The translations under genes were made by a program, and so were the position numbers. From Dehalococcoidia bacterium (GTDB lineage Bacteria > Chloroflexota > Dehalococcoidia > SHYB01), in assembly GCA_965207995.1 (NCBI GenBank), contig CBDBNG010000001.1, forward strand, positions 89,954 through 153,953: a stretch of 64,000 nucleotides of DNA. Direction: 5' to 3'. The notes beneath the pieces were generated by a model, which saw nothing but the letters and a program-made list of their open reading frames with translations, was not told the DNA's origin and made no database searches. This document shows, in pieces, positions 2,833 through 57,434 of the stretch (position 1 is its first letter; each line of letters opens with the position of its first letter).

Positions 2833-2909
2833 GCGCCCGTAGCTCAACTGGACAGAGCATCAGACTTCGGATCTGAGGGTTGGGGGTTCGAGTCCCTTCG
2901 GGCGCGCCA
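2833..2909 (+). tRNA. tRNA-Arg(UCG)
   Basis: Acceptor GCGCCCG/CGGGCGC, anticodon arm TCAGA-CT TCG GA-TCTGA, encoded CCA; TATAAT at 2795-2800. Confidence 0.97.
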
Positions 2910-11201: not shown

Positions 11202-11244
11202 CGAGGCCGGGTCCCGCGCTTCCCTGGTGTAAAATTAGGAATTG

Positions 11245-12585
11245 ATGGAAGTCGGGATCATTGGCGGCGGCGCGCTTGGACTGTCGGCCGCATACGAACT
11301 GACGCGCCGCGGCCACAAGCCCGTCGTGTACGAACGGGCTCCGTTCCTGGGGGGGCAGGCGTCGACCTTCGACGTCGGTGGCGGCCGGCTCGAGCGCGGC
11401 TACCACCACCTCTTCCGCAGCGACACGTCGATCGTCGAGCTGATCGAGGAGCTCGGCCTCGGCGACAAGCTGGCGTGGATCGAGTCGAGCGTCGGCTTCT
11501 ATAGCCAGGGCGAGATTCACCCCTTCACCACGCCGCTCGACCTACTCCGGTTCAAGCCGCTGAACCTCTTCCAGCGCCTGCGCCTGGGCTTCGTCACCCT
11601 CTTCCTCCAGCGCAAGAAGTACTGGCCCCGCGAGTACGAGCACGTCACCGCCCGCGACTGGCTGCGGAAGCGCATCGGGCAGAAGGCGCTGGACGTGGTC
11701 TGGGGCCCCCTGCTGCGGGGCAAGTTCGGCGACCACGCCGACGAGGTCTCGATGGCTTGGCTCTGGGGCAAGATCTACCTTCGCACCACGTCACGGGACA
11801 AGGGACTGCGGGGACGCGAGCGGCTCGGCTACCCCATGGGCAGCTTCGCCGAGATTTTCGAGGCGCTGGAGCGCGCCATTCCCGATGGCGGCGGCGAGCT
11901 GTACTACCCGGCGACGGTGAAGCGTGTCGTCGTCGAGGACGGACGAGCGACGGGCTTAGTCGTCGAGCGCGACGGCAAGGAGGAGACGCGCAACTTCGAC
12001 GCCATTCTCGCCACCTCGCCCTCCTACGTCGTGCCCGCGCTTGTCCCCGAGCTGCCCGACGACTACAAGGCGCTGCTCACCAAGGTGCGCTACGAGGCGG
12101 CCATCCTGATCGTGATGCACCTCGACCGGCCGCTCACGCCCTACTACTGGATCAACATCGCCGACCCCACGATCCCGTTCGTGGGGATGATCGAGCACAC
12201 CAACTTCGTGGACAAGTCGCTGTACGGCGGGCGGCATCTGGTCTATCTCTCCAACTACGTGGCCCGCGAGGACAAGTTCTACGACATGTCGCCCGACGAG
12301 CTCTGGGCGAACTACGTGCCCGCCATCAAGCGCATCGCCCCGGACTTCGACGAGTCGTCGGTCATCGAGTGGAGCTACCACCGCGAGAACGCCGCCCAGC
12401 CCATCATCGGCCTCGACTACTCCAAACAGATTCCCTCGCTGAAGACGCCCATCGAAGACCTCTGGCTGGCCAACACCACCCAGATCTACCCCGAGGACCG
12501 CGGCACCAACTACAGCGTCCGGCTGGGCCGGCTCATGGCCCGCATCCTCACCGGCGACGCCCCCAACAAGATGTGGTGGGAGTAA
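11245..12585 (+). CDS. FAD/NAD(P)-dependent oxidoreductase (protoporphyrinogen/amine oxidase-like)
   Basis: IIGGGALGL, LERGYHHLF, YPEDRGTNYSV. Confidence 0.85.
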   Translation: MEVGIIGGGALGLSAAYELTRRGHKPVVYERAPFLGGQASTFDVGGGRLERGYHHLFRSDTSIVELIEELGLGDKLAWIESSVGFYSQGEIHPFTTPLDLLRFKPLNLFQRLRLGFVTLFLQRKKYWPREYEHVTARDWLRKRIGQKALDVVWGPLLRGKFGDHADEVSMAWLWGKIYLRTTSRDKGLRGRERLGYPMGSFAEIFEALERAIPDGGGELYYPATVKRVVVEDGRATGLVVERDGKEETRNFDAILATSPSYVVPALVPELPDDYKALLTKVRYEAAILIVMHLDRPLTPYYWINIADPTIPFVGMIEHTNFVDKSLYGGRHLVYLSNYVAREDKFYDMSPDELWANYVPAIKRIAPDFDESSVIEWSYHRENAAQPIIGLDYSKQIPSLKTPIEDLWLANTTQIYPEDRGTNYSVRLGRLMARILTGDAPNKMWWE

Positions 12586-12622
12586 CCCCTTAATCCGTGC
12601 GGAGGCGATCCTTGTGGTCGCC

Positions 12623-12927
12623 GGTGGCGCGGGGCGGTTTTCACCCTCTCCCGCTGGAGACCCTTCCACAACACGCGACGCCGGCAGAGGCCCGCCCATG
12701 TAGGGGCAACCCTCGTGGTTGCCCAGGGGTGCGGGTAGGGTCTTCTCCCCTTCCCCTCGGGAGACTCTTGCGTAATTCCCCGGCAAGCCAAAAAGACGGG
12801 TGGCGCGGGGCGGTCTTCACCCTCTCCCGCTGGAGACCCTTCCACAACACGCGACGCCGGCAGAGGACCGTCCATGTAGGGGCAACCCTCGTGGTTGCCC
12901 AGGGGTGCGGGTAGGGTCTTGTCCCCT
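12623..12927 (+). repeat. Direct duplication of a ~129-bp REP-containing unit (12623-12751 and 12799-12927)
   Basis: Near-identical copies 176 bp apart, each with TGTAGGGGCAACC-ctcgt-GGTTGCCC. Confidence 0.92.
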
Positions 12928-12931
12928 CCTC

Positions 12932-12956
12932 TGTAGGGGCGATTCACGAATCGCCC
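12932..12956 (+). repeat. GTAG-type REP palindrome
   Basis: TGTAG-GGGCGATTC-ac-GAATCGCCC. Confidence 0.85.
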
Positions 12957-13032
12957 GTGCCTATCCCCCGAACGGCCTCGCGGGGGTAGGCCCAAGGTAC
13001 GCAAAGGTCTAGCGTCATCCGCCACCATCCCC

Positions 13033-13082
13033 TTGACACGACCTCTCCCGCGGCCTATCATCAAATAAGAACGAACGTTCTT
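13033..13082 (+). promoter_or_regulatory. Near-consensus promoter with LexA-type SOS box over the start site
   Basis: TTGACA(13033)-17-TATCAT(13056); AAGAAC-GAAC-GTTCTT at 13067-13082. Confidence 0.8.
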
Positions 13083-13290
13083 TGCCGGGCAGTGGCGACA
13101 CCCGCGGACGCGTGAGAGATGGGCGCCGCAGCACTGGCGGGCGACGGCAACGGCCGGAATTGCCCCGCGGACGCGCGGGAGACAGGGCCCAGGCCGTGGC
13201 GGGCGACGGCGGCGGCCTGAACTGCTCTGCGGACGCGCAGAGTCAGGCCCTTGCCGTGGCGGCGCTGAGCATCTCAGCCAGGGCCGAGAG
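13083..13290 (+). ncRNA. Candidate structured RNA of three ~62-nt repeat units
   Basis: GCGGACGC at 13104/13167/13229 and TGGCGG at 13135/13197/13257; GACG-loop hairpins with compensatory changes; lies between convergent genes. Confidence 0.45.
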
Positions 13291-13295
13291 AGGCG

Positions 13296-14384
13296 CTAGA
13301 GCTCGATCACCGAGCGCAGCGTCTCCCCCCGCTCCATGGCCTCGAAGGCCGGCTCCGTCTCGTCGAGCTTGATGAGCCGCGTCACCACCCGGTCGAGGTC
13401 GAGCGCGCCCTTGGCGTACCAGTCGGCGAGCATGGGGAAGTCGCGGGAGGGAAGGCAGTCGCCGTACCAGCTCACCCGGAGCGCCCCTCCGAGGCCGAAG
13501 AACTGGAGCATGGGGACCTCGACCACCATGTCGGGGCTGGGCACGCCGATGAGGGTGCAGGTGCCGGCGAGGTCGCGGCTCCAAAGGGCCTGGAGCAACG
13601 TCTGCGGCGTGCCGACGGCCTCGAAGGAGTGGTCGACGCCGTTGCCGCCGGTCAGGGCCTTGACCGCCTCCACGGGGTCGCCCGCGGTTGCGTCGACGAC
13701 GTCGGTTGCGCCGAACTCCTTGGCCCATTCGAGCTTGTTCGCCGCGATGTCGACGCCGATGATCGTGCGTGCTCCCGCCAGCTTGGCGCCCATGATGACG
13801 CTGCAGCCGACGCCGCCGCAGCCGTAGACCGCGACCGTGCTCCCCCGGCGCACCTGGCCCGAGTAGAGCGCCGCGCCAACCCCCGTCATGACGCCGCAGC
13901 CGATGAGCGACGCCTGGGGCGGAGGACAGCTTTCGGGCACGGGCACCGCCTGCTTGGCGGCGACGACGGTGTGCGTGCAGAAGGTCCCGATGCCGAGGGC
14001 GGGGTTCAACGTCAGGTTGTCGCTCTTGGTCTTCATGCGGGGCTCGGCGTTGAGGCTGGCCGAGCAGAGGTGCGGCTGCCCGATGGCGCAGAACCGGCAG
14101 GAGCCGCAGGGGGCGCGCCAGGCGAGGATGACGTAGTCGCCGACGGCGGGCTCGGTGACGCCCTCGCCGACGGCCTCGACGATGCCCGCACCCTCGTGGC
14201 CGAGCAGGAAGGGGAACTCGTCGGTGATGTTCCCCAGCTTGTAGTGCAGGTCGGTGTGGCAGACGCCGCTGGCCTGGACCCGCACCAGCACCTCGCCGGG
14301 CCCCGGATCGTCGATGACGATGTCTTCGACCAGCGCCGGCTCGCCCGCGGCGCGGGATACGACTCCGAGTCCATCGATAGGCAT
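13296..14384 (-). CDS. Zn-dependent dehydrogenase, S-(hydroxymethyl)mycothiol dehydrogenase-like
   Basis: GVCHTD, LLGHEGAG, CGSCRFC, GCGVMTG, GCGGVG, SWYGDCLPSRDFP. Confidence 0.85.
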   Translation of the reverse strand: MPIDGLGVVSRAAGEPALVEDIVIDDPGPGEVLVRVQASGVCHTDLHYKLGNITDEFPFLLGHEGAGIVEAVGEGVTEPAVGDYVILAWRAPCGSCRFCAIGQPHLCSASLNAEPRMKTKSDNLTLNPALGIGTFCTHTVVAAKQAVPVPESCPPPQASLIGCGVMTGVGAALYSGQVRRGSTVAVYGCGGVGCSVIMGAKLAGARTIIGVDIAANKLEWAKEFGATDVVDATAGDPVEAVKALTGGNGVDHSFEAVGTPQTLLQALWSRDLAGTCTLIGVPSPDMVVEVPMLQFFGLGGALRVSWYGDCLPSRDFPMLADWYAKGALDLDRVVTRLIKLDETEPAFEAMERGETLRSVIEL

Positions 14385-22555: not shown

Positions 22556-23395
22556 CTACGCCTCGACGGGGCGGAGGATGTGGCGTCCCCGCTCGTTGAG
22601 GTCCAGGTAGCCCGCCTTGTGCTCGATCTCGTGATCGAAGAGGACCAGCCACTGCTCGTCGTAGGCCCGCGTCAGGAGGTCGCGCTTCGCGTTGAGGGTG
22701 TCGATGGGGTAGAGGTCGAAGCTCTGGGCGTAGGGCATGGGCAGGTGAGCGGCCGAGGGGATGAGGTCGCCGAAGAAGCAGGCCTTCCGCCCTTCGACTT
22801 CGAGGAGGACGATCTGGTGCCCCGCGGTGTGGCCGCCGGTGCGCTTGCAGTGGACGCCGGGCACGATTTCGGTGTCGCCGTCCAGGAGCTCAAGCTGGCG
22901 GTTTCCTTCGAGGGGTGCGAGGTCGGCCTCAAAGTAGCCCGCGCCGTTGCGCTCGTTGGGGTGGGTGGCCTCCTCCCAGTCGGCCCGCTGCGCGAGGTAC
23001 TGGGCGTTGGGGAAGGTCGTGGCGAGCGCGCCGGTGGGGGTGGTGTAGGTGGCGCCGCCGGCGTGGTCGAAGTGCAGGTGGCTGAAGACGACGTAGTCGA
23101 CGTCGGCGGGCTCGAGACCGTGGCCGCGCAGCTCGTCGAGGAGCCGTCCCGCCTTCATGACGAACTGGTTCTGGAGCTTCTCGGGATGCTTCAGGCCGAG
23201 GCCGGTATCGACGACGATGTTCTTGCCGCCGGCGCGGATGAGGGGGCAGTTGATGTCGAGGGTGACGCGGTTGCGCTCGTCGGGGGGCGCCCCTCGCTCC
23301 CACAGGACGCGGGGCACGACGCCGAAGTAGGCGCCGCCGTCGATCCGCATCGAGCCGTCGATCAGGAAGTCGAATTGGAGATCGCCGATGCGCAT
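22556..23395 (-). CDS. MBL-fold metallo-hydrolase (YtnP-like)
   Basis: DGGAYFGVVPR, SHLHFDHAGG, GGHTAGH; TATAAT at 23425-23420 and GGGAGG RBS. Confidence 0.92.
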   Translation of the reverse strand: MRIGDLQFDFLIDGSMRIDGGAYFGVVPRVLWERGAPPDERNRVTLDINCPLIRAGGKNIVVDTGLGLKHPEKLQNQFVMKAGRLLDELRGHGLEPADVDYVVFSHLHFDHAGGATYTTPTGALATTFPNAQYLAQRADWEEATHPNERNGAGYFEADLAPLEGNRQLELLDGDTEIVPGVHCKRTGGHTAGHQIVLLEVEGRKACFFGDLIPSAAHLPMPYAQSFDLYPIDTLNAKRDLLTRAYDEQWLVLFDHEIEHKAGYLDLNERGRHILRPVEA

Positions 23396-23656
23396 GGTGC
23401 CCCTCCCGCCTTTGCTCCCATTATAGGAGCGTTGCGTGGCCCGCCGCGGGAGACACCGCCCCGCAACCCGCCCGCAGGCTCGAACGGCCTGCCCACGGCC
23501 TCCCTAGACGGCCGTCCTGCTCGGGCGCGCTCCGAGCAAGACGGCCTAGGGGCCGATCCGGCGTTCTCTCGCCACGCCCATGCACTGTTAGAGGCAGTGC
23601 CTTCGCCCCCTCTAAGGGCGGACTGGTGGCCGGTGGACCGCCATTGTGGGCCCGCG

Positions 23657-23707
23657 AGAACATGCGTTCGCTATCGTTAGATTAGCAGCGGCGACGCGGG
23701 CCGTCAA
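23657..23707 (-). promoter_or_regulatory. Second promoter with LexA-type SOS box
   Basis: Minus strand TTGACG-17-TAATCT (extended TGn), then CGAAC-GCAT-GTTCT at 23670-23657. Confidence 0.72.
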
Positions 23708-23757
23708 AGGGCGCGTGTCACAGTTGCCGCCACAGGAATGGAGAGGCCGGAGGGGAC

Positions 23758-56438: not shown

Positions 56439-57434
56439 ATGGACGCCGGGCCGCCCATCATCGTCGTCGATCTTGGCGGCACGAACCTGCGCGTGGGGCT
56501 CGTCGAGCCGACCGGCGCGATCATCGAACGGGTCCGCGAGCCAAACCGTGAAGAGGACGGCCCGGAGCGGGTGGCCGACCGCATCGTCGAGGCGGGACGC
56601 GGGCTGCTGGCGAAGCACGGCTTTGCCGAGGCGATGGGCCTCGGGGCCGCCGTGGCGTCGCCGCTGGACAAGGTCGGCGTCCTCTACAACCCGCCGAACC
56701 TCCAGAGTTGGGGAGTCGTCCCCTTCCGCGACATGCTGGCGGAGCGCTTCGACGGGCCCGTGCTCATCGGCAACGACGCCACGGTCGCCTGCCTAGGCGA
56801 GTACATCTTCGGACAGGGCAGAGGGATGAGCGACCTGATCTATCTCACGGTGAGCACCGGAGTTGGCGGCGGTGTCATCTCGCAGGGCACGCTGCTGTCG
56901 GGCTACCGCGGGCTGGGCCCCGAGCTGGGCCACCTCATTGTCGACCGCGAGGTCGAGGACTCCATCGGCGAGCCTGGCGTCGAAACCGGCCCCTGCGGGC
57001 ACGCGGGCTGCCTGGAGATGATGACGTCGGGGACGGCGATCGCCATGCGGGCGCGAGCGGGACTTGAGGGCGGCGCGCAGACCTCGCTGCGGGCGATGGC
57101 TCTCGGCAAACCGGACGCGATCGAGGCGGAGCACGTCTTCCGCGCCGCCGCGGCGGGCGACGCCTTCGCCGCCGGTGTCATGGAAACGGCGGCCCGCGAC
57201 CTCGCGTTCGGGCTGGTGAGCCTCGTCCACGCCTTCAATCCCCGGCGGATCGTGCTGGGAGGCAGCGTCGCGCTCCACAACTGGGAGTTGCTCGGCCCCA
57301 TCGTCGAGGCGCGCGTGCGGGAGCATGCCTTCCCCGCGTTCCTGGAGCCGTTCGACATCGTGCTGTCCGAGTTCGGCGACGACGTGGGACTCATCGGCGC
57401 GGCGGCGCTGGTGGCGCACCGGCGCGGAGGCTGA
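56439..57434 (+). CDS. ROK family sugar kinase
   Basis: DLGGT, GNDA, STGVGGG, ELGH, CGHAGCLE. Confidence 0.9.
   Translation: MDAGPPIIVVDLGGTNLRVGLVEPTGAIIERVREPNREEDGPERVADRIVEAGRGLLAKHGFAEAMGLGAAVASPLDKVGVLYNPPNLQSWGVVPFRDMLAERFDGPVLIGNDATVACLGEYIFGQGRGMSDLIYLTVSTGVGGGVISQGTLLSGYRGLGPELGHLIVDREVEDSIGEPGVETGPCGHAGCLEMMTSGTAIAMRARAGLEGGAQTSLRAMALGKPDAIEAEHVFRAAAAGDAFAAGVMETAARDLAFGLVSLVHAFNPRRIVLGGSVALHNWELLGPIVEARVREHAFPAFLEPFDIVLSEFGDDVGLIGAAALVAHRRGG

Follow-up and report, generated by a model that had tools for sequence, protein, structure and literature searches.

The window analysed here is a stretch of 64,000 nt from a Dehalococcoidia genome of 3.50 Mb (two contigs, C1 and C2; 67% GC; 93% complete), hereafter called G000. 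The element under study lies between two convergent genes, an amine-oxidase-like gene at 11242-12585 (+) and a Zn-dependent dehydrogenase gene at 13296-14384 (-). The latter matches Pfam ADH_zinc_N and ADH_N, with a GC content of 0.69/0.49/0.94 at the three codon positions. A sigma-70-type promoter is found at 13033-13061 (+), where the first-pass annotation of this DNA had placed it: TTGACA (13033-13038), a 17-nt spacer and TATCAT (13056-13061), matching 11 of the 12 consensus positions. It is the only promoter-like site in 12400-13500, a region for which shuffled sequences give an expectation of 0.1. Transcription is predicted to start near 13068, and a LexA-type box already recognised by the same annotation, AAGAAC-GAAC-GTTCTT (13067-13082, no strand assigned), lies across this predicted start site. 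The box begins 5 nt after the -10 hexamer. When promoter and box were searched as one pattern (promoter-N6-RGAAC-N4-GTTCY), the window gave a single match and 100 shuffles gave none. Just upstream of the -35 hexamer, a conserved block of the CGCCACC-N-CCC type (13020-13032, +) marks the 5' limit of the similarity with the paralogues described below.

Behind the operator lies an array that Tandem Repeats Finder reports as a tandem repeat of period 62, with 2.6 copies and 78% matches. A covariance model of the unit (about 60 nt) was built from 24 units, and the array can be divided as follows. The leader and module 1 (13083-13127, +) contain a hairpin with a GACG loop at 13101-13116, in which CCCGCG (13101-13106) faces CGTGAG (13111-13116) with one G.U and one C.A. 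Module 2 (13128-13189, +; 69.4 bits, E 8.5e-10 with the covariance model) comprises a linker hairpin region and the hairpin 13164-13179, formed by CCCGCG (13164-13169) and CGCGGG (13174-13179). In module 3 (13190-13249, +; 64.2 bits, E 6.2e-9) the hairpin 13225-13242, formed by CTCTGCG (13225-13231) and CGCAGAG (13236-13242), is extended by an outer helix of GGCCTGA (13214-13220) and TCAGGCC (13243-13249). The linker motif TGGCGGGCGACGGC recurs at 13135 and 13197, and a last partial one is present in the 3' tail (13250-13272, +), where the similarity with the paralogues ends. Two C-G to U-A double changes distinguish the stems of units 2 and 3, and the spacings between hairpins, 63 and 62 nt, do not keep a reading frame. 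The three hairpins, the outer helix of unit 3, the double changes, the linker motifs and the lack of a kept frame had been read from this sequence before, and each of them was recovered.

The stop codons of the two convergent genes are separated by a block of 707 nt (12589-13295, no strand assigned). Besides the hairpin-array element, designated family A, this block contains another hairpin repeat and two repeats of 129 nt. At the orthologous site in three related genomes (G004, G005 and G006) the two stop codons are only 4-8 nt apart. In run X1, an RNA library of a strain about 95% alike, one contig passes directly from 12588 to 13296, only four letters lying in between. This was the only RNA library with part of the window; its contigs do not cover 13037-13237, which reflects the lack of the insertion in that strain and carries no information on expression. 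The same block is present in G002 at 95% identity. The window copy is a recent insertion, which had not been perceived from the window alone. At the orthologous site in G003 (G003:C3:174700-176676) the two genes flank another insert, different from this one and about 2 kb long. As for the 129-nt direct repeats (12623-12751 and 12799-12927, 97% alike), similar pieces are found at many places in G003, G004 and G005, and several family-A copies abut such repeats.

A BLAST search of G000 with the region 13030-13295 returned ten further loci, 70-85% identical from the block before the -35 box onward. In seven of these paralogues the similarity extends over the hairpin units, and in three it mainly concerns the promoter and the first hairpin; it begins at 13019-13020 and ends at 13262-13271 in window coordinates. 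With a profile of the promoter and first hairpin, 11 copies were detected at E 1e-24 or better, plus weaker variants, so that the family in this genome comprises 11 close copies and two variants, about 13 in total. The layout of a copy is always an upstream block, a sigma-70 promoter, the operator, a leader with the first hairpin and then from none to at least six modules of about 60 nt. Each module contains an invariant CGGACGCG stem-loop with a GACG tetraloop, and this invariant core suggests a sequence-specific reader. The number of hairpins per copy is 1-5 in this genome and reaches seven or more in sister genomes. The unit model gave 19 matches in G000, of which 18 fall within eight arrays, all in the sense of the promoter, and one is an orphan (C1:1917222-1917289, +, E 5.8e-4). 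This match and another weak one in the window (56964-57012, +, E 0.05) lie outside arrays and may be orphan or decayed units. The arrays are not of the CRISPR type, as the whole unit of about 60 nt is conserved between units and between loci, with no unique spacers.

In the related genomes the unit model detected 12 matches in G002, 10 in G003, 26 in G004 and 13 in G005. There are 8-13 or more loci per genome, several of them at orthologous positions across genomes, and the number of units varies between orthologous loci. No match was obtained in G001 (74% complete) or in G006 (94% complete, one contig, same genus); the lack of the family in G006 indicates that it is dispensable. The model also found none in 139 other genomes sampled from the class, under stricter filters. 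Two BLAST matches outside the genus were considered as possible members and set aside as chance matches, being short (22-48 nt) and GC-rich with E values of about 5e-4. The exact hairpin pattern, searched in 185,579 species with one genome each, was present in 13 stretches from four assemblies, all named 'Dehalococcoidia bacterium', and two metagenome scans gave no family match. Among the genomes searched, the family is restricted to this genus. That the element belongs to a multi-copy, genus-restricted family goes beyond what had been proposed for it from the window.

The LexA box is the best-conserved part of the family in the 31 distinct copies collected from five genomes: nearly all core positions of the 14-nt box have 1.5-2.0 bits. 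The upstream block (1.2-1.7 bits per column) and both promoter hexamers are also conserved, whereas the middle of the spacer has drifted (0.4-1.0 bits). This combination of conserved hexamers and operator with a drifting spacer points to selection on transcription itself. In 30 of the 31 arrays the box is located 59-66 nt before the first unit detected by the model; in the remaining one the model match overlaps the box. One copy in G000, at C2:474980, has a mutated half-site.

The genome encodes a single LexA (C2:556055-556660, with matches to LexA_DNA_bind and Peptidase_S24). Boxes of the form GAAC-N4-GTTC are located about 66 nt upstream of lexA, and the same box is found in the promoters of recA and of the imuB-dnaE2 pair, so the canonical SOS genes of this genome share the motif. 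The box at 13067-13082 contains the GAAC-N4-GTTC core of this clade, and AGAAC-N4-GTTCT is the form of the LexA site described for Dehalococcoides. Taken alone, GAAC-N4-GTTC is at chance level, with 53 sites in the genome versus 37-64 in simulations. About 29 of these 53 sites are directly after or inside a TTGACA-17-TATNAT promoter, as judged by reading the flanks by eye, and only these sites in promoter context are informative. The first-pass proposal of a LexA-gated promoter is well supported by comparison, through the boxes shared with recA, lexA and imuB-dnaE2 and through the near-invariance of the box in 31 copies; LexA is predicted to keep the units silent.

Perfect AGAACRYRYGTTCT sites number only eight in the genome. 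Seven belong to the family (six family-A copies and a hybrid of families A and D at C1:1193054) and one to imuB-dnaE2; relatives of the same genus or family that lack the arrays have 0-3 such sites. This enrichment could mean that the copies serve at the DNA level as LexA decoys, extra high-affinity operators that buffer free LexA, the RNA being irrelevant. We consider this very improbable, since it leaves unexplained the conservation of the -35 and -10 hexamers as well as the invariant hairpin core, the compensatory and G.U changes and the strand bias reported below.

Besides family A, several other LexA-box promoters were noticed. The window itself contains a second one (23395-23720, -), with the box CGAACGCATGTTCT near 23658-23671. 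It drives 'family D', a leader of about 230 nt that looks non-coding and contains a CCGCCCTTAGAGGGGGCG hairpin, upstream of a gene for an MBL-fold, YtnP-like lactonase (22556-23395, -) that has its own TATAAT box. Further copies of family D are present at C1:504039 and C2:241546, and the locus C1:1193055 is a hybrid with family-A units. A 'family B' consists of five near-identical elements of about 720 nt behind a LexA-box promoter in G000 (C2:587621+, C1:238849+, C1:435346-, C1:2366548- and C2:204732-). None of their frames has the GC pattern of coding sequence, and Rfam has no match to them; family B may represent a large non-coding RNA under SOS control or a further mobile element. At C1:2497954 (-; locus L043), a gene for an Fpg/Nei-type glycosylase is found about 200 nt behind a LexA-box promoter. 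Its leader is made of about six repeats of about 31 nt, each with a GGAG-containing hairpin, and tandem hairpin leaders thus also precede a true SOS repair gene. LexA boxes with a shared promoter type are located before phage genes at C1:1041879 (-), C1:1338348 (+) and C2:587259 (-). One of these loci encodes a phage portal followed by a prohead protease and the two others small-terminase-like genes; together they look like dispersed SOS-controlled phage packaging genes, in the manner of a gene transfer agent. Finally, two boxes at C2:344491 and C2:344557 (locus L050:3032-3733) precede a gene for a protein of 233 aa that belongs to no family of Pfam or NCBIfam. A protein atlas provided only leads for this protein, at scores of 0.94-0.95, namely hypothetical proteins of viruses and a terminase large subunit C-terminal domain.

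Whether the array could act as RNA was evaluated from the pairing in its homologues. In total 75 units were aligned to the covariance model, 69 of them distinct. The main hairpin with the GACG loop is paired in 97.8% of the cells of the 69 distinct units, and the hairpin of module 1 in 97.2% of those of 30 distinct copies, so the pairing proposed for the window copy is retained across homologues. One pair of the main hairpin is UA in 52 units, CG in 9 and UG in 7, and is never unpaired. In module 1, one pair is GU 16 times, GC 10 times and AU 4 times, and another is UA 17 times, UG 8 times and CG 3 times. The covariation score was not matched by any of 500 shuffles, and slid controls gave 17-50% pairing. 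The outer GGCC helix is 94.1% paired in the unit alignment, and the linker hairpin, as modelled, only 64.6%. It should be noted that the sister genomes are very closely related, with 92-98% identity in the flanks. Many units therefore share descent, and the covariation counts overstate the number of independent events; this closeness also leaves too little divergence for a test of conservation against a neutral rate.

G.U cells outnumber A.C cells (56 versus 27), and the sense strand folds better (z -3.19, with 1 of 200 shuffles as good) than the antisense strand (z -1.53). Both observations indicate that the pairing fits the strand transcribed from the promoter. The global fold of 14 three-hairpin copies given by RNAalifold is ambiguous and long-range, because the GGCC and CCGG motifs offer many alternative pairings. 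The robust part of the modelled structure is the three GACG hairpins only.

The frames of the array deserve attention, as two ORFs are open across it, one of 96 aa at 13082-13372 and one of 33 aa from the ATG at 13119, and the commonest unit length is 60 nt. The element could accordingly code for protein, either as a gene for a small protein built of repeats or for a toxic peptide induced by the SOS response, or as what is left of the 5' end of a decayed ordinary gene. However, the ORF spanning the element has GC contents of 0.74/0.78/0.67 at the three codon positions, versus about 0.65/0.45/0.92 in real genes of this genome, and across the 60-nt units the GC content is flat (0.73-0.78) in all three phases. 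Neither ORF has a Pfam match, only 37 of the 75 unit lengths are divisible by 3, the ATG is replaced by CTG in several paralogues, and all copies are intergenic. Lacking the codon GC pattern of the genome, a conserved frame and a family match, the protein-coding explanation was rejected, and we see almost no chance that it is correct. The sequence data instead favour the first-pass reading of a structured, presumably non-coding RNA: there is no codon-position GC signal and no Pfam match, and the changes seen on the sense strand, compensatory or to G.U, maintain the pairing. That annotation had recognised no RNA family either, and Rfam agrees, with no match to the element at gathering score or at E values up to 10 and nothing on 12 related loci. 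The only Rfam matches in the window are two tRNA genes, at 2687-2759 and 2833-2906 (+).

No terminator-like site was found after the array in the region scanned (12400-13500), and in the window copy only about 30 nt separate the end of the array from the convergent stop codon. A run-through transcript would be antisense to the 3' end of the dehydrogenase gene, a possibility raised in the first-pass annotation that may be a side effect or a rival function. Ten of the 13 copies, variants included, face a convergent gene, whose stop codon is at most about 100 nt from the end of the array in nine cases. It is conceivable that each unit is an SOS-induced antisense device firing into the 3' end of the convergent gene, with the 5' array only stabilising the antisense RNA. 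However, the neighbouring genes are mutually unrelated (dehydrogenase, amidohydrolase, MMPL, EPSP synthase, BKACE and others), and three of the 13 copies are located upstream of co-directional genes with their own -10 boxes (rpsO-pnp, an HMGL-like gene and an SDR gene). Moreover, it is the modules that are conserved and not the region of overlap, and a 3' end is also simply the least harmful position for an insertion. We regard an antisense function as quite improbable.

Our preferred interpretation, to which we would grant an even chance, is that these elements are LexA-repressed small RNA genes, mobile at the DNA level, whose damage-induced product is a multivalent hairpin RNA with a trans-acting role as decoy or scaffold. 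LexA would repress the units until DNA is damaged. Damage would then free, from the window copy, an RNA of about 200 nt with three copies of one hairpin, and about thirty hairpins genome-wide. The released RNA could engage in trans a factor that recognises the hairpin, serving as its multivalent decoy or scaffold, and run-through into the convergent gene would be a by-product. The units would spread by a copy mechanism at the DNA level, as suggested by the fact that the promoter travels with them: a repeated unit that includes its own promoter argues for copying of DNA. The control logic and the constraint at the RNA level are supported by comparison; transcription, a binding partner and an effect on the cell are put forward as predictions.

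The same mobility can also be viewed without any benefit to the host. The family could be a selfish repeat, a promoter-bearing intergenic element that propagates at the DNA level for its own sake. The box and promoter would be kept because SOS-timed transcription or DNA opening aids copying, or because unrepressed copies are purged, and a mobilising enzyme would recognise the hairpins on one strand of the DNA. Many observations are consistent with this: the empty site in three sister genomes and in the run X1 contig, the 8-13 or more loci per genome with orthologous loci differing in unit number, an upstream flank that is non-homologous between genomes at one locus, the frequent adjacency of copies to other intergenic repeats and the confinement of the family to one small clade. 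In addition, G.T wobble is tolerated in hairpins of single-stranded DNA as well. On the other hand, no terminal inverted repeats were seen at the element, whose units are direct tandem repeats, and no match to a Y1 (RAYT/TnpA) transposase (PF01797) was obtained in the genome. Several loci are kept at orthologous positions, and the conserved hexamers and operator beside a drifting spacer need selection on transcription. A purely selfish element is in our opinion possible but on the unlikely side.

A bolder extension of the preferred interpretation can be imagined, in which the element is a mobile 'SOS ribo-cassette' of a new kind, a DNA unit consisting of nothing but a LexA-gated promoter and a modular RNA, which has spread through the chromosome and on which the host now depends. 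About thirty hairpins released at once would buffer an RNA-binding enzyme, and the LexA regulon of this organism would be mostly non-coding. Such cassettes may correspond, as trans-acting elements of the chromosome, to type III antitoxins or Csr sponges, and non-coding families A-E may stand alongside dispersed phage packaging genes in this regulon. This extended scenario is speculative, and we consider it improbable as a whole.

Taken together, the comparisons of sequences describe a real family of hairpin arrays that is, by all indications, non-coding, LexA-gated, multi-copy and mobile. LexA regulons as usually described consist of repair, mutagenesis and prophage genes and a few small transcripts. 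The best predicted LexA operators of this uncultured Dehalococcoidia lineage are instead mostly located at apparently non-coding hairpin arrays, which are mobile, occur in many copies and are absent from catalogues. Should the RNAs prove functional, the DNA-damage response would gain an RNA layer, and the arrays would provide a natural example of regulatory RNA genes spreading with their own stress-gated promoter. If the family is selfish, it would represent a repeat family tied to the SOS signal of its host without encoding a protein. Either way, precise loci are now available for work on LexA binding and on RNA in a group with almost no experimental genetics.

Nothing like this hairpin-array family was found described in Rfam or in the literature, the latter covered by narrow full-text searches that are no proof of absence. 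In its likely way of working the element resembles most a Csr/Rsm sponge or a type III antitoxin array, an analogy that falls short of membership in either class. Like CsrB and RsmZ, a single RNA would present many small hairpins with an invariant loop motif and can bind several copies of one factor. However, the loop is here a GACG tetraloop closed by C-G instead of a loop GGA, and the genes are LexA-gated, mobile and about 13 per genome. GGA does occur within CGGACGCG, with its first G paired in the model, and no match to CsrA (PF02599) was obtained in the genome (93% complete). Type III antitoxins such as ToxI, CptI and TenpI consist of a promoter followed by direct tandem repeats of a structured RNA, which may be processed to monomers. 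The element likewise has a promoter and then tandem direct repeats of a predicted structured RNA. In contrast to these antitoxins, its units are about 60 nt instead of about 36-45 nt and it is dispersed over many loci. The first-pass suggestion of a type III antitoxin-like array did not hold, as no toxin gene is adjacent and the array is followed, with no terminator-like site, by the convergent Zn-dehydrogenase gene. The other roles put forward in that annotation, a protein sponge and a processed sRNA precursor, are candidate functions.

Tandem short GC-rich hairpins with a conserved ACG-containing tetraloop are also a feature of guanidine-II (mini-ykkC) RNAs. The present hairpins differ from these by their loop register, GACG, by having no Rfam match even at E values up to 10, and by the fact that most copies have no downstream gene to control. 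The LexA-controlled small transcripts of E. coli (tisB/istR, symE/symR and dinQ/agrB) are single-copy and encode or control toxic peptides. The family shares with them the small unit under SOS-box control outside repair genes but has a repeated hairpin array and no conserved peptide. Qrr, LhrC and the cyanobacterial Yfr2 are paralogous sRNA genes that share one exposed motif and one regulator; compared with these, the family has a higher copy number, modules repeated within a gene, movement at the DNA level and LexA as the predicted regulator. In its genomic behaviour the family is closest to Correia elements, REP/BIME sequences and MITEs, which are multi-copy intergenic hairpins, often at gene 3' ends, insertion-polymorphic and able to carry promoters. 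It is distinguished from them by the absence of terminal inverted repeats and of inverted REP doublets (the units are head-to-tail direct repeats), by a genome in which no RAYT/Y1 transposase was found, and by a LexA operator that is itself part of the repeated unit.
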